Sequence record: KC710998
DNA length: 51,821 bases
Direction: 5' to 3' (one strand)
From: Shigella phage pSf-1
Within the stretch, counting starts at the first letter, position 1. Each line of letters starts with the position of its first letter. Under the pieces are notes generated by a model. It was not told where the DNA came from. It made no database searches and saw only the letters and a list, made by a program, of their open reading frames with translations. Below, piece by piece: positions 1,308 to 35,503 of this stretch. A program made the position numbers and the translations under genes.

Positions 1308-2240
1308 TTAGAGAAGAGATTCAGGTTTGTAAACCTTTCTCTCTATCCCTTGCCTGTAATTATCATGAATCGGCATCATAATTTCAAGTCCTCTTTCCTC
1401 GGCAGCAATGATCGCGTCACGGTCTGTACTCTTACAGACAACTCGCATTCTTCTGTTGCCTTTATACCTGTAAGCTACAATCTCAATATTCGTTGCATCA
1501 AAGCAGGCCCAAACCTCTTGACCAGTTGCAAGGTGAATATGTTGCGCATCAATCCAGTCAACGCAAAGATAGATAGTCTTATCGGTGCTTCCTGTTCTAA
1601 CAACCGACCCCCGCGTGTAGTCCTTTGCGAGAAAAGACTGTTTACCTTCTTCATCAATGAAAAGCACATTGCACATTTCATCATCAACATCATCTGAATG
1701 CACAAGGTAACATGGTAACGCGTGAATGTATCGACCATCTTTTACGCCGCAATCATAATGACCATCTTCAGGCGGGTATATTCCTTCATATGTGCTTAAC
1801 GGCGTGCGATCAAATTTTAGTGTTTTTGACATAACGCGCTCGCAGCATTCATGGCTTGCCTGTTTCCCAAACGAATAACCAGAATCACGAGATACTCGCT
1901 TATTTGCCTTGATTCTATAGTCCTGCGGAACTTTTCCAAGAAAACGGCCCAAAATATTGATCACTTCGCTGTAAGGTTCTCCGGTTAGCTTCATGATCCA
2001 ACCAATTCCGGTATCATTACCGCACACGTTGCAGATCGCACCGCCATCGCCTTTTTTATCGCCAAGTTTATCCGTCCATCTGAAGCGATCCTTTCCGCCG
2101 CAGTGGGGGCAAGATTGATGCTTGCCGTTAAAAACTTCATTTGGAAGACCGCAAATACTTTGTAGCGCCTCACGCCACAATCCTTGCATATATGGGAGAA
2201 CATCTTCCTTTTGATAAACCATAAAGTTTTCGTTATTCAT
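1308..2240 (-). CDS. DNA primase (P4-type zinc-binding / toprim-like)
   Basis: CPHCGG...CNVCGND zinc-ribbon motif; start moved to internal ATG (MNNENFMVYQ) with GAGGTG RBS; track ORF 1308..2342. Confidence 0.6.
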   Translation of the reverse strand: MNNENFMVYQKEDVLPYMQGLWREALQSICGLPNEVFNGKHQSCPHCGGKDRFRWTDKLGDKKGDGGAICNVCGNDTGIGWIMKLTGEPYSEVINILGRFLGKVPQDYRIKANKRVSRDSGYSFGKQASHECCERVMSKTLKFDRTPLSTYEGIYPPEDGHYDCGVKDGRYIHALPCYLVHSDDVDDEMCNVLFIDEEGKQSFLAKDYTRGSVVRTGSTDKTIYLCVDWIDAQHIHLATGQEVWACFDATNIEIVAYRYKGNRRMRVVCKSTDRDAIIAAEERGLEIMMPIHDNYRQGIERKVYKPESLL

Positions 2241-2783: not shown

Positions 2784-2826
2784 TAGCATTTTTTGTTAAA
2801 CGATGATTTAATGATTGTGTATTATA
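2784..2826 (+). promoter_or_regulatory. conserved promoter cassette (variant ATAGCATTTTTTGTTAAAC + 18 nt + TATTAT) upstream of helicase
   Basis: member of repeated motif family; spacing and -10-like hexamer conserved. Confidence 0.5.
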
Positions 2827-2858
2827 CACGCCAAATGGCATTACTCAAAGGTTTTAGA

Positions 2859-4541
2859 ATGATTCCAAACATTGAAAAGCAAATATCAGCACTTGGTGAA
2901 GCGGTAATTAAATCCATTCAGGAGCGATTCACTGTTGGCGATATTGTGCCTTACCCTTACCAGTGCGTTGCATACGCTGAGATCGCAAAGCGTATGAAAA
3001 ATTATGAGCATCCATTCTTTGTTAAAGCGTCCGTATCGGCTGGCAAAACATTGGTGTTTGCAATGGTTGCTCACCAGTGCCGGAAAATGGGCTTGAAAAT
3101 GATGGTCCTTGCTCGCCAGGCTGAGATTGTGGGTCAGGATTCTGAAGAGATAACAAATCTTGGTGTGCCGAACTCCATCTATTGTGCAGGACTGAAGACA
3201 AAAAGCGCATACTTTCCGATCGTTGTTGGTTCTGAGGGAACTGTAGTTAATGGACTGTTTAAAGCGCTTGGCGACTATGTTCCGCACGTTATCGGGATTG
3301 ACGAGTGTCACCAGGTGGATTGGGAAGACCTTGCCGACGCAATAGACAAAGACGAATCATTTTTGCAAATGACGACGAAGAAAGGCGAAAAAGTACCAAA
3401 TCCAGATTATGACATAACAAAGGGAAGCAGGAACAGAAATACAGAGTTCCTGATTGGTGAAGATGGCTTGCCAATGGAGGGAACAGGCCGCACACAATAC
3501 ACTGTCATTATCATGGAAATGATGCGACGTTGCAGGAAAGCATATGGCCATGAACTGCGCATATTTGGCATGACTGGATCGGAGTTTCGCGGCGTAGTCC
3601 CGATCCTGGTAGAAGACAAAAAACAAAAAGGATTCTGGCGTGAACAGGTTACTAATATTGACACCAACTACCTGATCAAATTCGGTTCTGTTGTGCCAAC
3701 AAATTTTGGCGACGTTGGCGATCTAGGGTATGACCTTTCAGAGTTTGAGGCATCCAGCGAGGATGGCGTTGCAGACTTTGACGCTAAAACGCTTCGTAGG
3801 ATGGAACAAAAAATTCATGAAGAAGCGACCATGACAAAGCGCATCATGGCAAAAGTTCACGAGATCTGTAAAAACCGCAACGGCGTACTTGTGACATGTG
3901 CAGGAGAAAGGCATTGCAAAGAGGCAGCGGCAGCGTTGCCACCTGGAACTACTTACAGGATCATTACTGGTAAGACTGGCGACAATCAGCGCAAGGAGTG
4001 GTTGAGGGAAGCATACGAAGGGAAGGTAAAATACATCTTCCAGGTTCAGGCGCTAACAACTGGCGTTAACGTTCCGTTTTGGGATACGTCGGTTATATTG
4101 CGTAAGATTGGATCTCTTACGTTGCTGATTCAGCTTTTAGGGCGCGGAATGCGACTACTTAAGAAGTGGCATAAGGAGCAAGGATTCCAGAAAGATGATC
4201 ATCTCGTCATGGATTTTTCAGGAACGATGGACGAGTTAGGGGAACTTTATTTTGATCCGATACTGGAACAGGCGCAACATCAGAAGCGATTCAGGAACGG
4301 TAAAGATCCGAAGCCTTGTCCTGTTTGCGGAACTCTTAATAGCTATTATGCTCGTCGTTGTATGCACGTAGACGAAAACGGCAACAGATGCGAGTGGTTC
4401 TTTAAATTCAGGACATGCGATGATCAGATTGACCCGCGCACTAAAAAGATTATTCATCGCGGTTGTGGAACGAAAAATGATATTGCGGCCAGGGTGTGCA
4501 GACATTGCGACATGTCATTGATTGACCTAACGAGAAGTTGA
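2859..4541 (+). CDS. SF2 (DEAD/DEAH-type) DNA helicase with C-terminal zinc ribbons
   Basis: Walker A VSAGKT, GIDECHQ (DExH box), C-terminal CPVCG...CRHC; start chosen at ATG 2859 downstream of promoter cassette (track ORF starts 2793). Confidence 0.7.
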   Translation: MIPNIEKQISALGEAVIKSIQERFTVGDIVPYPYQCVAYAEIAKRMKNYEHPFFVKASVSAGKTLVFAMVAHQCRKMGLKMMVLARQAEIVGQDSEEITNLGVPNSIYCAGLKTKSAYFPIVVGSEGTVVNGLFKALGDYVPHVIGIDECHQVDWEDLADAIDKDESFLQMTTKKGEKVPNPDYDITKGSRNRNTEFLIGEDGLPMEGTGRTQYTVIIMEMMRRCRKAYGHELRIFGMTGSEFRGVVPILVEDKKQKGFWREQVTNIDTNYLIKFGSVVPTNFGDVGDLGYDLSEFEASSEDGVADFDAKTLRRMEQKIHEEATMTKRIMAKVHEICKNRNGVLVTCAGERHCKEAAAALPPGTTYRIITGKTGDNQRKEWLREAYEGKVKYIFQVQALTTGVNVPFWDTSVILRKIGSLTLLIQLLGRGMRLLKKWHKEQGFQKDDHLVMDFSGTMDELGELYFDPILEQAQHQKRFRNGKDPKPCPVCGTLNSYYARRCMHVDENGNRCEWFFKFRTCDDQIDPRTKKIIHRGCGTKNDIAARVCRHCDMSLIDLTRS

Positions 4542-4903
4542 GCGGAAAGCACTACACAAAAAACGACTGGTTCAAGGTGCAATCTTTCTCGGTTGACATA
4601 ACGAAAAACCAGAAAGGGATAATATTTAATTATGAGCTTTCCGATGGCATGGACACTTTCAGGGCGAGAGAGATATTTTTCCCTGAATCTGAGAGCCAAA
4701 TTTGCCGCGCAAAATGGCGAAGCGTTGCTCTTAAGCACATACCAGATCGCCGCGTTGCTGGCATGGTGGCGAGCTATCGTAATGCACGAAAAATAATGCA
4801 ATATGTGAATCACATTATGCCGCCATCGCGTGTGACTCACCGCAAGACTAGCAAGGGTGAAGATAATTTGTACAAGAAGGACTTTAATTATGGCAATAAC
4901 TGA
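4538..4903 (+). CDS. hypothetical protein (TTG start overlapping helicase stop)
   Basis: ORF track; no recognisable motif; start uncertain. Confidence 0.3.
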   Translation: MSGKHYTKNDWFKVQSFSVDITKNQKGIIFNYELSDGMDTFRAREIFFPESESQICRAKWRSVALKHIPDRRVAGMVASYRNARKIMQYVNHIMPPSRVTHRKTSKGEDNLYKKDFNYGNN

Positions 4904-12904: not shown

Positions 12905-12949
12905 GATTATGCCAGGTTTTGCACCTGGCGTTTTAACAAAAAGTGCTAT
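12905..12949 (-). promoter_or_regulatory. conserved promoter cassette (minus strand)
   Basis: 44-nt core identical to the plus-strand cassette at 17701..17744 (includes hairpin GCCAGGTGCAAAACCTGGC). Confidence 0.55.
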
Positions 12950-13655
12950 TTTGCGTTTGCTTCAAAGACGGCGCGAGCAAAACCGCGCGGTGTGAGGGAG
13001 CGGATCATCTTTGTGCGAGATGATTTTCCGCCAGTTTTGGCCCAACCAGGATTATCCTTGTCATCCTCTTTAGGAAGGATTGTTGCGCGCGGAGGAATAA
13101 CAAATCCGTTTCCAGTCCAAAGGCATGTTTTCTTAAAGTACCGATCCCGCGCCGGAATAATATCAGGGAAGTCGGGATGCTTATCATCTTCCGGCAGATA
13201 GCAGCATAATCGCACGGATGGAACGTATAATCAGGCTTACGCCATAACGTTGACAGCTTGCCTACAGGATTTTCGATCATGTAAGGAACGCCGAAATAAT
13301 CAGCGATATGCGCCGCGATTCTGCAAGTGTCGGCGGCCTCATCCTGGAACGCTGGATTCTCAAGGCGTTTTTTGGTCCAATGGCGAGATCCGCTATTTGC
13401 AAGGTCAGTGCACGGCGGAAATGCCATAATGAAATCAGGCTTGCCCCAATTTTCAAGTTTTGCGGTATATTTGAATAGCTCATCAATCCACACATTAACG
13501 TAAAAAATATTATCATGGATTATGCGCACTGATTGGTAGTCGCCATGATCTGCATCATCGTAATTAAAGCAAATGCATTTATATCCAGCATCAGCCCAAT
13601 CTTTAACGGCTTTACCAGATCCATCAAACAAAGAGAATATTAAACCTTTATACAT
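12946..13655 (-). CDS. C5-cytosine DNA methyltransferase-like protein, apparently frameshifted
   Basis: motif I LFDGSG, motif IV FPPCTDLANSG (PC dipeptide), motif VI ENPVG; coding continues in another frame (track ORFs 13005..13655 and 12946..13215). Confidence 0.45.
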
Positions 13656-25053: not shown

Positions 25054-25574
25054 ATGGCTAAAAACGTTGAGCCAGCAGTAAAGGCTTGCAATTTTAAAAA
25101 ACTATATAATAAGCAATATGGCGATATAGCAAAAATGACAAAGGCGCACAAGTACACGCCGGAACAGGTATTTGATCTGGCTGTTCGTTACTTTACGTGG
25201 GCTGAGGAAAACCATATACAGGCTGCGGAAACGGCATCCTTTCAGGGTGACGTATACGAAAGCAAGATTCACAAGCCGCGCGTGTTCACCTTAAACGGAT
25301 TCCGATTATTCGCTGGCCTTTCTGCCTCCGTACTTGAAAAATGGCGACGCGAGCAGGATTTAGCGATGTTATGGACTTTATCGACGGCGTTGTTTACGAG
25401 CAAAAATTCCAGCTTGCCGCAAACAATATTGTTAACGCCGGATTCATTGGTAAGGAGATCGGCATTGAAAAGCCAGCCACCGTTACCATTGAGAATAACA
25501 CAAGCGCCAGCGTTGACGCTGTAACGGCGGAGGAAGTCAAAGAGGCGGTAATTGACATTCTGGAGAAGATATAA
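25054..25574 (+). CDS. terminase small subunit (apparent frameshift near 25357)
   Basis: N-terminal part ...KPRVFTLNGFRLFAGLSASVLEKWRREQ in one frame, C-terminal part GFSDVMDFIDGVVYEQKFQLAANNIVNAGFIGKEIGIEKP in another (track ORFs 24883..25524 and 25341..25574); AAGGAGGG RBS. Confidence 0.55.
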
Positions 25575-27142
25575 TGCTGATTTGGGAAGACTTAACAGCG
25601 GCGCAAAAGCGCGCCGTTAAGGAAATGAGCGAATATTCATTCGAAAAGATGATCCGCATTTGGTTTCAACTTCTCCAGGGGCAAAGGTTCTTGGGAAACT
25701 GGCATTTCAGTTACCTATGCAGCGAAGTTGAAAAAATCATCAAAGGCGAGTCACAGAATGTAATTTTCAACATAACGCCAGGCAGTGGTAAAACAGAGAT
25801 ATTCTCGATCCACATGTCACCTTATGCGTCATTGAAAAGTAAGAAGGTGCGAAATCTTAATCTTTCGTTTAGTGATGGCCTTGTCCAGCAGAATAGCAAC
25901 CGCATCAAAGAGATTATTGGTTCTCCAGAATGGCAGGAGCTATGGCCTGGAAAGCTGGCAAAGGCGAGCGCAAAGGATTTGATTGTAACAGATGGCGGCA
26001 AGGTTAAATTACAAGTCAACTCGCGTTCTATTGGTGGTCAGGTTACTGGTCTGCGTGGCGGATACATGGACGATGGATTTACTGGTATGCTGGTTCTTGA
26101 TGATCCAGACAAACCGGATGACATGCTTTCTAAGGTGAAGCGCGAAGCCGGACACATGCGCCTAAAGAACACGGTGCGATCGCGTCGAATGAAAGACACT
26201 ACGCCAATTGTGATGGTTCAGCAACGTCTACACGTCAATGATTCAACGTGGTTCATGACAAACGGCGGTATGGGCGGCATCCAGTTTAAGGTGGTAAGTA
26301 TTCCGGCGCTCGTTACTAAGGAATACCGCGAAACGCTTCCTGATTGGTTAAAGCCTGAGTTTGATCGCGATGTTTTGTCCAGTAAGCCAGTGATGATTGA
26401 TGGTGTTGCTCATTATTCGTTCTGGCCTGCTAAGGAAAGCGCGGAGGAATTACTTGCACTTCGAAATGCTGATCCGTACACGTTCGCCAGTCAGTATCAG
26501 CAACAGCCTGTTGCGCTTGGTGGTAACGTGTTTAAAACAGAGTGGTTCCAGTATTACGGCAGCAGCGAGAAATGCACGCTACCAAAACCGGATCGCTTTG
26601 AATATACATTTATCACGGTTGATACCGCGCAGAAAACAGGTGAGCTTAACGACTACTCCGTGATCTGTTATTGGGGGATGTATAAAGATCGTGTCTACTT
26701 CATTGATGGCGTTCGCGGAAAATGGGAAGCACCGGACCTTGAGACGAATTTTGTTGCATTCGTTAATCAGTGCTGGAAGCGCAATAAAGAATGCGGAACG
26801 TTGCGAAGGATTCATGTTGAAGATAAATCATCTGGCACTGGCTTGATTCAGAGTGCAGCGAAAAAAATCATGATCAAGATCAATCCCGTTCAGCGCGATA
26901 AAGACAAGGTTACGCGAGCAATGGACGCAGCGCCAGTAATGCGCGCCGGACGCGTAGCACTTCCAGAATCCCATCCTATGCTGGCTGAGATACTAGCTGA
27001 AGTTGCGGCGTTTACATTCGATGATAGCCATCCTCATGATGATATTGTTGATAACATCATTGATGCGGTTAACATTGAAATGAACATGGCAGATGATCCG
27101 GTTGGAAGAATGAAAAAATTGGCAGGTTTGCGGAACAAATAG
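25574..27142 (+). CDS. terminase large subunit
   Basis: Walker A ITPGSGKTE, 522 aa, follows TerS. Confidence 0.7.
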   Translation: MLIWEDLTAAQKRAVKEMSEYSFEKMIRIWFQLLQGQRFLGNWHFSYLCSEVEKIIKGESQNVIFNITPGSGKTEIFSIHMSPYASLKSKKVRNLNLSFSDGLVQQNSNRIKEIIGSPEWQELWPGKLAKASAKDLIVTDGGKVKLQVNSRSIGGQVTGLRGGYMDDGFTGMLVLDDPDKPDDMLSKVKREAGHMRLKNTVRSRRMKDTTPIVMVQQRLHVNDSTWFMTNGGMGGIQFKVVSIPALVTKEYRETLPDWLKPEFDRDVLSSKPVMIDGVAHYSFWPAKESAEELLALRNADPYTFASQYQQQPVALGGNVFKTEWFQYYGSSEKCTLPKPDRFEYTFITVDTAQKTGELNDYSVICYWGMYKDRVYFIDGVRGKWEAPDLETNFVAFVNQCWKRNKECGTLRRIHVEDKSSGTGLIQSAAKKIMIKINPVQRDKDKVTRAMDAAPVMRAGRVALPESHPMLAEILAEVAAFTFDDSHPHDDIVDNIIDAVNIEMNMADDPVGRMKKLAGLRNK

Positions 27143-27210: not shown

Positions 27211-28490
27211 ATGAGTAAATCACGAATCGTTAAGGCTGATGGCTATAACGAGATCTTTAAAGGCGAGAATTGCAAATCGCGAGTAGAGCAACCATTCTAC
27301 ATGCAATCAATGCCATACAAGACACTTGCTGACTTTTACGAAAAAGACGGCCTGGCAAAAAGGGTTATTGACGTAGTACCAGAGGAAATGGTTTCCCCTG
27401 GCTTCACGGTTGACGGCGTGGCAGACGAGGCAGCATTCCGTTCTTTGTGGGATGAGAAGCGATTGAATGCAAAAATTATTGATGCGCTTTGCTGGTCGCG
27501 TTTGTTTGGTGGATCTGCAATCATTGCTCTTGTTCAGGATGGGCGAGCGCTCAAATCACCTGTAAAGCCTGGTGCCATGTTGGAGGATGTGCGAGTTTAC
27601 GATCGCTATCAGATTCGCGTTGAAGCGCGCGAAACTAATCCACGCAAGGTTCGCTATGGTGAGCCAGTGCTTTACACTGTAACGCCAGGCGGAGACTTGC
27701 CGGAATACCAGGTACACTACACGCGAGTTTGCATTATCGACGGTGAGCGGATACCTAACGCAAAGCGACGCAGCAATGATGGCTGGGGTGAGTCAGTTCT
27801 TAACAAGCGACTTGTTGAGGCTATTGTTGATTATAACTATTGTGAAACATTGGCAACGCAATTATTGCGGCGGAAGCAACAGGCGGTATGGAAGGCTAAA
27901 GGACTCGCTGACTTGTGCGATGATGAAGAAGGTGTTAGCGCGGCACGTCTGAGGCTTGCGCAGGTTGACGATGAGGCGGCGTAGGCAGGGCCATTGGTAT
28001 TGATGCTGAGGATGAGGAATATGATGTTCTTAACTCTGACATTAGCGGCGTTGATTCTTTTCTGGAAAAGAAAATGGATCGCATCGTTTCCCTTTCAGGT
28101 ATTCATGAAATCATCCTGAAAAATAAAAACGTTGGCGGAGTTAGCGCAAGCCAAAACACGGCGCTTGAAACATTCTATAAGCTGATTGAACGAAAACGCG
28201 TTGAGGATTACAAGCCTATTCTTGAATTTCTATTGCCGTTCATCATTAGTGAGCAGGAGTGGAGTATTGAGTTTTCACCTTTGAGCGTACCTAGCGATAA
28301 AGATCAGGCTGAAATTCTGAATAAGAATATCGACTCAATCAGCAAGGCTATTGATGGTCAGTTCCTTGATGTTGAAGAAGCGCGCGACACGTTGCGAGCA
28401 ATCGCCCCAAGCGTTAAACTAAAGGACACTAATAAAATCAAGCTGCCGGAGCCAACTGAGCCGGAGCCAGGCACGCAGGGGAATGAGTAA
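27211..28490 (+). CDS. portal protein (apparent frameshift near 27970-27985)
   Basis: two adjacent track ORFs (27211..27984, 28074..28490); second frame is open back to about 27975, so one indel joins them; position between TerL and head morphogenesis gene. Confidence 0.5.
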
Positions 28491-29254
28491 TGAAAGTGAA
28501 AGGCGTTGTTAAACAATGGCGTTTTCCTGAAGCAAGCGAGCGGCAATTTAGCCGCTCAATTCAGGAGGCAATTAGAGATCTGGTAGTTCTCATGCGTAAT
28601 AGGACAAAAGCGATGAAGTTTGACGCAACCGATAATGAGATCAACAGCGCAGAAGATGAAATTAACAGCCTGGCAACTGACCTTATAGCTGGCATTGTTT
28701 CCACTCTTCCTGCAATCGCGTTGACCATTTATAAATTCAATGCGAAGCAGTTTATCAATGTTGCCAAGTCAACTGGCGGAAAGGATAATACGGCGGTAAT
28801 TGTTTTGATCGCGGTTGGCGCTAACGCTAACGAGGATTGGTATCAGACGCTCTACGGTCAATGGCACGGGCTTACAGAATCATCGCTAAGGAAGTTATTC
28901 ACAAACATTGTTTCTGATTGGTCAACAAACATTCGTAATGCAAACTTTCGCGGAAGCAATGATAAACAGGTTAATGATCTTGCAGAAAAGAGATTTGCTG
29001 TTTATAGCTCTTGGGGTAAAACGAGATCAGAAAACATTATCGGCGCGTGGAATAGTCGCCTGATGCGCCAGCGCCTTTATGATGCTAAGGTAACTCATTA
29101 TTTCTGGCATGGAATGTTAGATGACAGAGAGCGCTTGCAGCATGTGTTATGGGAAGGTAAAAGAATAGCGCTTAATGCAATTCATGATTTCCCTGGTGAG
29201 CCGTGGGGTTGCCGTTGCTGGGCGATTCCAGATTGGAATAATAAAGGAGAGTAA
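28490..29254 (+). CDS. head morphogenesis protein (Mu F / SPP1 gp7-like)
   Basis: C-terminal motif FPGEPWGCRCWAIP. Confidence 0.55.
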   Translation: MKVKGVVKQWRFPEASERQFSRSIQEAIRDLVVLMRNRTKAMKFDATDNEINSAEDEINSLATDLIAGIVSTLPAIALTIYKFNAKQFINVAKSTGGKDNTAVIVLIAVGANANEDWYQTLYGQWHGLTESSLRKLFTNIVSDWSTNIRNANFRGSNDKQVNDLAEKRFAVYSSWGKTRSENIIGAWNSRLMRQRLYDAKVTHYFWHGMLDDRERLQHVLWEGKRIALNAIHDFPGEPWGCRCWAIPDWNNKGE

Positions 29255-29257
29255 TTA

Positions 29258-30370
29258 ATGAAGGCAAAACAAAGATTTGATAGCGTCCAGGTTAAGGCGC
29301 ATTTTGATGATAATGGCTTTTTAGTGGATCGCCCAATTGTGGCGCGAATTGGTTTGCAGGAGTACCGCACACCGTATGGAATCAGGCGAGAGTTCCGACC
29401 AGCGTCAGAAGTGTTTAAGGCTGATTCGCTTGCTACGTTCGCAGGCAAGCCGATCACTATCGGTCACGTCACAGTGACGCCAGATAATGCGGATCAGGTT
29501 GTTGTTGGTTCATGCGCTGGCGCTGGTGTTCCAAATGGGATTGGCGTTGAAGTTCCGTTAAGCATTTATTCAAAGCGAGCAATTGAGAGCGCAAAAAAGA
29601 AAGACACGGCGGAAATTTCAGTTGGTTACACATCAATTGATATTGATAAACCAGGTTGGGGCAATAATAAAACTGGCGATTACTTGTTTGAGGAAGACAT
29701 TAAGGAAGACTGGAAGCCTGATTCTCCTGATTGGGTTAAATTTGACGCCATTCAGACGAATATCCGTGTTAATCACATTGCGCTCGTCTTTCGTGGTCGT
29801 GCTGGCATTGCCAAATTAAATCTTGATAGTGAACAGGATTTTCCGTATAGTGACGAGGTTCTAAATGACAAAGGAGATGAGGAAATGACAGTAAAAATTA
29901 AACTTGATGGCGCGGTAGAATTTGATGTTCCAAAGGCCGTTGCTGATCATATTGAGGCGTTAAAGGCAGATGCAAAAGCTGCAACCGAAAAAGCTGATGG
30001 CCTTGAGGCCGAGCGCGACGCCCTGAAAACTAAAGTCGATGGCATTCCGGCGCAGATTGCAGAAGCTGTTAAGAAGGCAAAGACTGACGCAGAAGAACAC
30101 GCCAAGCTGGTTGCAGATGCAACTGAAATTGGCATCAAGTGTGACGGCCTGGACGCTAAAGCGATCAAAGTTGCTTACGTCAAAGAAGTCACTGGCGCTG
30201 ATATTTCAGAAAAAGCCGATGCATATATTGAAACAGCTTTTGACCTTGCGAAGCAGTCTGATAAAATGGCGGCGCAGCGTAAATCTGTTAAGGGCGATTC
30301 TTTCGAGTCTGGCAAGAATGAAAAAACCGACTCCCTTGATCCGACTGCGCGTTTGAAAAAACTTAAATAA
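29258..30370 (+). CDS. scaffolding protein / prohead protease-like
   Basis: C-terminal Ala/Lys/Glu/Asp-rich predicted coiled coil; position before capsid genes. Confidence 0.45.
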   Translation: MKAKQRFDSVQVKAHFDDNGFLVDRPIVARIGLQEYRTPYGIRREFRPASEVFKADSLATFAGKPITIGHVTVTPDNADQVVVGSCAGAGVPNGIGVEVPLSIYSKRAIESAKKKDTAEISVGYTSIDIDKPGWGNNKTGDYLFEEDIKEDWKPDSPDWVKFDAIQTNIRVNHIALVFRGRAGIAKLNLDSEQDFPYSDEVLNDKGDEEMTVKIKLDGAVEFDVPKAVADHIEALKADAKAATEKADGLEAERDALKTKVDGIPAQIAEAVKKAKTDAEEHAKLVADATEIGIKCDGLDAKAIKVAYVKEVTGADISEKADAYIETAFDLAKQSDKMAAQRKSVKGDSFESGKNEKTDSLDPTARLKKLK

Positions 30371-30924: not shown

Positions 30925-30984
30925 TATATTTGGGGTTATCATGAGTGATTATTCAGTCATTGTTGGCGCTGAGTCGCAGGGTGC

Positions 30985-31374
30985 ATGGTCGATTCTTCAA
31001 TAATGGTGATTAACGGATCTTTCGTGTGCGGAGATGAATTTATTGAGCCAGGTAAGATTGTGCGACTATCACATATAACAAATGGATACAAAATAGCAAG
31101 TGTTAATGGGGATCTCGTTATTGGTGTGGCAGTAAGGCCGCCGTACTCGTGCATATATGAGGAGGGTGATCCCGTTAGTGTAGTTAGTAGAGGTAGTGTG
31201 TGGTGCTTAACTTCTGAGAGCGAAGCGCCAGAATACGGAGATAAGGTGTTTGTAACGCAAGATGGTGATGCGTCATACAGTGAAGGCGACTTACTGAGCG
31301 GTTGGATCTTTACTGGCGAACATGTAAAGGTTGATCATGATTCATATATTGTCGGGGTAAGCATTAGCGCATAA
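30985..31374 (+). CDS. capsid-associated structural protein (paralog 2)
   Basis: ORF track; similarity pattern to 30383..30895. Confidence 0.4.
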   Translation: MVDSSIMVINGSFVCGDEFIEPGKIVRLSHITNGYKIASVNGDLVIGVAVRPPYSCIYEEGDPVSVVSRGSVWCLTSESEAPEYGDKVFVTQDGDASYSEGDLLSGWIFTGEHVKVDHDSYIVGVSISA

Positions 31375-35185: not shown

Positions 35186-35503
35186 ATGTCAAAAATGAAA
35201 TTGACGATTGGGCCGCTTCCTGACTTTAAATTACCAGTGAAATTTGCAATGCCTAACGGAGAAGATCAAACAATTATCTTCACAGTTCGCCACCGCAAAA
35301 CAAGTGAGATTCACGAGCGCTACACGTCAGATACTCCAATGAGCGATGTTGAAATGATCACCTTCCTTGCTTCCGGTTGGAATCTTGATGATGAATTTAA
35401 CGAAGAAAATATTAAACAGCTTCTTGATTACTACCCAGCGACAGCAATCGGATTAACTAGCGCATACATGAAAGCGCTTGCGGGGCAGCGAGTAAAAAAC
35501 TAA
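35186..35503 (+). CDS. tail assembly chaperone G-like
   Basis: 105 aa, AAGGGGAAAG RBS; ends at slippery heptamer. Confidence 0.55.
   Translation: MSKMKLTIGPLPDFKLPVKFAMPNGEDQTIIFTVRHRKTSEIHERYTSDTPMSDVEMITFLASGWNLDDEFNEENIKQLLDYYPATAIGLTSAYMKALAGQRVKN

Follow-up and report, generated by a model that had tools for sequence, protein, structure and literature searches.

Portal gene of Shigella phage pSf-1 as deposited

The sequence record of Shigella phage pSf-1 (KC710998) was analyzed over its full length of 51,821 nucleotides (i.e., the window), to which all positions given here refer. The portal gene adjoins TerL (25574..27142) and is followed by the gene for a head morphogenesis protein (28490..29254) and by a gene whose product is called either 'prohead protease' or 'capsid and scaffold' in related phages (29258..30370). 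The gene order of the head module around the portal is annotated in the same way in these relatives. The portal of pSf-1 itself is annotated as two separate genes, and the following features were identified at this locus.

27211..28490, + strand: whole portal gene, PF06381 (Phage_portal_3), 1280 nt in the pSf-1 record vs. 1281 nt in all relatives
27211..27984, + strand: N-terminal portal fragment, 257 aa, AGI61445.1/YP_008059784.1, annotated as 'virion structural protein'
27973..27980, + strand: lesion site of the portal, GAGGCGGC in pSf-1 vs. GAGGGCGGC (or GAGGGTGG) in relatives
27975..28490, + strand: C-terminal portal part, 171 codons in the -1 frame plus the TAA stop codon at 28488-28490
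28074..28490, + strand: annotated second portal ORF, 138 aa, AGI61446.1/YP_008059785.1, annotated as 'hypothetical protein pSf1_0063'

The first ORF ends with ...LAQVDDEAA and a TAG at 27982-27984, and the last two residues (i.e., AA) and the TAG of this 257-aa ORF are out-of-frame products of a deletion. The -1 frame has a TGA at 27972-27974, is open from 27975 and reads GGVGRAIGIDAEDEEYDVLNSDISGVDSFLEKKMDRIV..., and the two portal frames share only 10 nt (27975-27984). The record annotates the C-terminal part only from the in-frame ATG at 28074. That the first ORF ends with LAQVDDEAA and that the next frame is open to about 27975 had already been stated in the initial annotation of this DNA, and both were seen again in the ORFs and their translation. 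Exact protein look-ups with the 257-aa and 138-aa products returned one contig each, with a length of 51,821 nt.

Portals of related phages and the restored pSf-1 portal

Phage pSf-1 is the type species of Hanrivervirus, a T1-like genus in the subfamily Tempevirinae of the family Drexlerviridae. The portal region of pSf-1 showed 96-97% nucleotide identity to those of many Hanrivervirus phages of Escherichia, Shigella, and Salmonella. The portal at the syntenic position of vojen, phiE31-2, G29-2, slyngel, and herni is a single 1281-nt CDS (426 aa) annotated as portal, and the order TerS-TerL-portal-head morphogenesis protein-protease/scaffold-major capsid protein is common to the Hanrivervirus relatives of pSf-1. 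The other Hanrivervirus portals (i.e., those of vojen, slyngel, herni, G29-2, Henu8, and others) were 98-99% identical in amino acid sequence to that of pSf-1 both before and after the break, and they have the same neighbors and, except for one base, the same length; they contain GAGGGCGGC (or GAGGGTGG) within one 1281-nt ORF, whereas pSf-1 contains GAGGCGGC. When the portals of the relatives were used as tblastn queries, their residues 256-426 aligned to 27975..28487 with 98.8% identity.

Alignment with the relatives revealed that a single G is missing from a GGG run at about 27975-27977 in the pSf-1 record. The codons read GAY GAG GGC GGC GTA GGC in the relatives and GAT GAG GCG GCG TAG GC in pSf-1. 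Without this G, the portal frame runs into the TAG three codons on, and the other 171 codons are left in the -1 frame. The initial annotation had suggested that a single-nucleotide indel at 27976-27986 splits a portal of about 425 aa, and had proposed an alignment with the portals of related phages as a check. In this alignment the portals of the relatives are all single genes with one extra G, and insertion of one G into the pSf-1 sequence yields a protein of 426 aa, in agreement with the suggested indel. The interval suggested for the indel overlaps the true site but stretches further downstream than the site does.

The fused portal of 426 aa, obtained by joining the translations of 27211..27975 and 27975..28487, matched positions 3-356 of the 357 positions of the PF06381 profile (formerly DUF1073) with 240.4 bits (cut-off 33.8; E 3.1e-71). 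Separately, the N-terminal piece matched profile positions 3-215 (E 3.9e-41) and the C-terminal piece positions 261-356 (E 1.6e-18). Given that the two pieces match consecutive parts of one Pfam profile, they are not a chance pair. The fused portal also matched phrog_146 'portal protein' (E 4.1e-121) and, over residues 4-422, the solved single-chain portals 9JLF and 9L01 (E about 1e-180). Members of this family were expected to be one polypeptide of about 420-450 aa. The portal as deposited (257 + 138 aa) is not, whereas the portal with the G restored is, and the record rather than the phage is considered responsible for this discrepancy. The pSf-1 portal is an ordinary member of PF06381, closest to the portals of the other hanriverviruses and of T1, and very probably an ordinary single gene, with the one-base deletion in the record as its only departure.

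The single-gene arrangement extends far beyond Hanrivervirus. A tblastn search with the fused portal found a homologue in 846 phage records, and the alignment covered at least 80% of the query in one place in 836 of them. All 60 homologue rows sampled evenly from 99.5% down to 41% identity were single-piece alignments. A protein-seeded search of IMG/VR retrieved 59 loci, and the complete ones, except L052 and L064, had one ORF of 418-455 aa that spans the junction. The contig of L052 is 47,112 nt long, as is the e4/1c record. The junction segment RLRLAQVD(D/N)xxGVGxAIGIDA was kept at almost all identity levels among the IMG/VR loci. No portal split at the pSf-1 position was found among the 846 phage records or the 59 IMG/VR loci. 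Likewise, a degenerate 30-nt pattern for the pSf-1 junction allele, which does match the pSf-1 sequence itself, had no match in IMG/VR, the JGI metagenome contigs, or the GTDB representative genomes. As a positive control, the same 30-nt pattern with one G added matched 12 of the 66 retrieved loci (L001-L066), including six from IMG/VR. The initial annotation had held that homologous portals with two natural genes would refute its reading, but the homologues are single genes in every set examined here, and such intact ORFs speak for an error in the record.

One further candidate for a split portal, a 4510-nt ENA metagenome contig found by shared protein clusters, encodes portal pieces of 202 aa and 192 aa. 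It was rejected as a second case of the break, as its own break is at another place and its 192-aa piece spans the junction intact (DDEGGVG). The locus L064 (IMGVR_UViG_2706796530_000001, 41,085 nt; match at about 1426..1677) is T1-like, and its portal ORF is interrupted early, with 83 aa around the match; it may be another low-quality genome. It should also be noted that some 20 GenBank entries without annotation, which bear the name 'Campylobacter phage' (host Campylobacter jejuni), had 93-97% nucleotide identity to pSf-1, and that the portals of four of them (MG065636.1, MG065681.1, MG065665.1, and MG065638.1) were 94.5-99.5% identical in protein sequence. The host label on these records looks doubtful.

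The break can be placed on a solved portal structure. The structure 9L01 is the connector of phage T1, whose single-chain portal gp52 assembles as a dodecamer and has crown, wing, stem, and clip domains (Viruses 2025, PMC11945409). The clip consists of residues 216-274 and is the interface with the adaptor, and the stem segments consist of residues 193-215 and 275-290 (PMC11945409). The 427-aa chain of T1 gp52 aligned with the fused pSf-1 portal over residues 5-422 (E 5.9e-179), and the interruption of the deposited gene by a one-base deletion was the only distinction between them. With the alignment offset of 6, the break corresponds to T1 residues 249/250 in the clip, and the first residue of the annotated second ORF corresponds to T1 residue 283 in the stem. 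Even taken together, the two annotated products would therefore be predicted to omit half of the clip and part of the stem. By homology to the solved portals, the pSf-1 portal probably has the same four domains as T1 gp52 and assembles into a ring of 12 subunits at the unique vertex of the capsid.

Other one-base lesions in the pSf-1 record

In a whole-genome comparison with vojen, slyngel, and herni, a 1-nt indel was considered private if it was absent from all three of these phages. Judged in this way against other species of the genus that are 94-97% identical, the pSf-1 record contained 11 private 1-nt indels (10 deletions and 1 insertion), while 5, 0, and 2 were found in the three relatives. 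According to the vojen annotation, those of vojen are intergenic or located at the very ends of genes. Of the genes that encode 170 aa or more and are unbroken in vojen, slyngel, and herni alike, those for the helicase, the methylase, TerS, and the portal are frame-broken in pSf-1. The lesions in these four genes are as follows.

2793..4903, + strand: DNA helicase, read as ORFs 2793..4541 and 4538..4903; one C lost (GACCCTAA to GACCTAA) at about 4526-4528
12946..13655, - strand: DNA methylase, read as ORFs 13005..13655 and 12946..13215; one base lost at about 13200-13203
25054..25574, + strand: small terminase (TerS); one C of GAGCCAGG lost at about 25354-25355, giving GAGCAGG
about 27977, + strand: portal; GGG to GG

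In all four lesions, a run of two or three Gs or Cs is shortened by one base. For TerS, the frame from 25054 stops at 25522-25524 and the true C-terminal portion is encoded by the frame that is open from 25338 to 25574, while the relatives have one 522-nt CDS. The initial annotation had described the lesion of TerS as of the same kind as that of the portal, and the one C missing at about 25354-25355 bears this out. The helicase is the replicative helicase and is about 680-700 aa in the relatives, and the change in pSf-1 is from CCC to CC. The lesion of the methylase, a cytosine methylase, is a change from AGCCAGC to AGCAGC on the + strand (i.e., CC to C), and in the relatives the 'putative site specific DNA methylase' has 234-236 aa.

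Further one-base deletions of G or C were found at about 12435, 17287, 20720, 30978, 9272, 9552, and 18533. Small hypothetical genes broken by such deletions encode products of 73 aa (at about 12435), 86 aa (at about 20720), and 156 aa (at about 17287, seen against vojen). The deletion at 30978 lies 7 nt upstream of an ATG at 30985, and the longer N-terminal reading in the annotation of some relatives is lost with it (435 nt vs. 390 nt). A GCC/GGC context is common to many of the deletion sites. The relatives have CCAGG at the deletion sites 25355, 30978, and 12431, and the site at 12917 adjoins one. A systematic error at Dcm sites (CCWGG) was considered and rejected, as the portal, helicase, and other sites are without such a motif.

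In addition to the private indels, an A run at about 2260 (about 2255-2302) varies in length among the relatives and sets the frame of the primase, which is 344 aa in pSf-1 and vojen and 311 aa in the annotation of slyngel and herni. This difference may be a real polymorphism or may reflect uncertainty about the start site.

Record error, real mutation, and recoding as explanations

The deletion in the portal gene is unique to the pSf-1 record, the portals of the relatives are intact, and other conserved genes of the same record are broken as well, several of which are expected to be essential. We consider it very probable (about 93%) that the split of the portal is a sequencing or assembly error in the deposited record that consists of one missing G. 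Judged from these comparisons, the cause is almost certainly technical rather than a real mutation. The error would be the under-calling of a short G/C run, one of about ten private one-base deletions, and in the real phage the portal would be synthesized as one polypeptide, 12 copies of which build the ring at the packaging vertex. pSf-1 was isolated and propagated as a lytic phage with clear plaques and normal virions, and later papers cite plaques of 4.5 mm and a head of 73 nm from its original description. Given that pSf-1 makes plaques and virions, its portal, TerS, and helicase must function. The lesions in the helicase and methylase genes, beside those in the portal and TerS genes, are most economically explained by a technical cause that affects the whole record.

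A systematic fault in base calling or assembly accounts better than mutation for the bias toward deletions and for their restriction to short G/C runs. The pattern is not, however, the classic one of pyrosequencing or ion-semiconductor sequencing, in which errors occur mostly in longer runs; the runs affected in pSf-1 are very short, with 2-3 bases. For another phage, described in a later paper, the pSf-1 group used Sanger and Ion PGM sequencing, from which nothing certain follows for pSf-1.

Alternatively, the deletion could be real, with the sequenced DNA derived from a defective or pseudogenised genome in which the portal is truly broken. The pSf-1 sequence as deposited does bear the lesion, and frameshifts in portal genes occur in other records. 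The portal CDS of phage e4/1c (NC_024210.1; 2764..3930), which belongs to the genus Rogunavirus of Drexlerviridae, is also annotated with 'premature truncation due to reading frameshift', and the portal of the IMG/VR locus L064 is interrupted too. The breaks in e4/1c and L064 are, however, at positions other than that of the pSf-1 break. In e4/1c, a phage of another genus, the truncation is near the C-terminus, and its lesion, being at a different position, is independent of that in pSf-1. A real deletion would also mean that the portal, TerS, and helicase are all lost in one genome, which is at odds with the lytic growth, plaques, and virions of pSf-1. The junction allele was missing from IMG/VR, the JGI metagenomes, and the GTDB genomes. 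T1-like Drexlerviridae are virulent. This, together with the lack of matches in 5,426 complete E. coli genomes, argues that pSf-1 is not a decaying prophage. A real deletion is therefore improbable.

Both portal pieces retain strong Pfam matches, and the second piece has an in-frame ATG at 28074, as would be expected if the pSf-1 portal were a naturally split gene whose two polypeptides assemble together. The two annotated ORFs, however, drop residues 256-288 of the fused protein, including the conserved GVGxAIGIDA, and the alignment to T1 gp52 leaves such a pair without the clip and stem portions mentioned above. None of the homologues in the 846 phage records and 59 IMG/VR loci is split there, and the split in pSf-1 is a change of frame within a conserved run of codons rather than a stop-start junction. 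A naturally split portal is thus very improbable.

The full-length portal could also be produced by programmed -1 ribosomal frameshifting or other recoding at GAG GCG GCG UAG. The downstream portal frame is shifted by -1 from the upstream frame and overlaps it, and -1 frameshifting is used elsewhere in the genome. The 105-aa ORF of the tail assembly chaperone ends with ...GTA AAA AAC TAA, which contains A_AAA_AAC in register at 35494-35500, and beyond this slippery site about 110 further codons are open in the -1 frame. This heptamer is expected to be a programmed frameshift site of the lambda G/GT type. In that type, an ORF is overlapped by a second one in the -1 frame, as at the pSf-1 portal, but the portal site lacks both a slippery heptamer and an RNA structure downstream of it and is conserved in no relative. 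Any shift at the portal is confined to the 10 nt of 27975-27984 (GGCGGCGTAG), and no slippery heptamer of the form X_XXY_YYZ was found in this overlap. The predicted folding energy of the downstream RNA (27985-28064, 80 nt) was -16.8 kcal/mol, compared to a mean of -16.89 kcal/mol for shuffled sequences (z = 0.03). No two-frame arrangement of the portal was found in the relatives, all of which have a single frame, and recoding is needless in these phages with portals that are 98-99% identical. Three other lesions in unrelated sequence contexts would each need separate recoding. Moreover, inefficient recoding is of no advantage for a structural protein that each virion needs in 12 copies, and it was seen in none of the homologues. 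Recoding at the portal is thus hardly credible. Equally far-fetched is a combination of the two, in which the deletion is real and the full-length portal is made by non-canonical recoding within GAG GCG GCG UAG, and likewise for TerS and the helicase. If recoding were true, it would imply an unusual tolerance of, or a mechanism for, frame correction during infection.

Under the preferred reading of an error in the record, the split portal carries little biological weight, and its value lies in data hygiene and as a warning for annotation. The RefSeq record of pSf-1, the type species, needs correction at four or more coding positions. The split portal, TerS, helicase, and methylase genes inflate the gene count of pSf-1, for which about 94 proteins are implied by the figures of a comparative paper, compared to 80-83 annotated features in close relatives. 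Fragments of these four proteins can mislead core-gene analyses and homology-based annotation, and in scans for recoding or pseudogenes the frameshifts of the pSf-1 record are best treated as errors until the phage is resequenced. An analogous mislabelling has arisen from e4/1c, whose 'truncated' portal name now stands on the full-length portal of another phage. The name 'truncated putative portal protein' of e4/1c was copied to the portal of phiE31-2 (PP988008.1; CDS 3212..4492), which has the full length of 1281 nt, and it was also copied into a note of the slyngel record.
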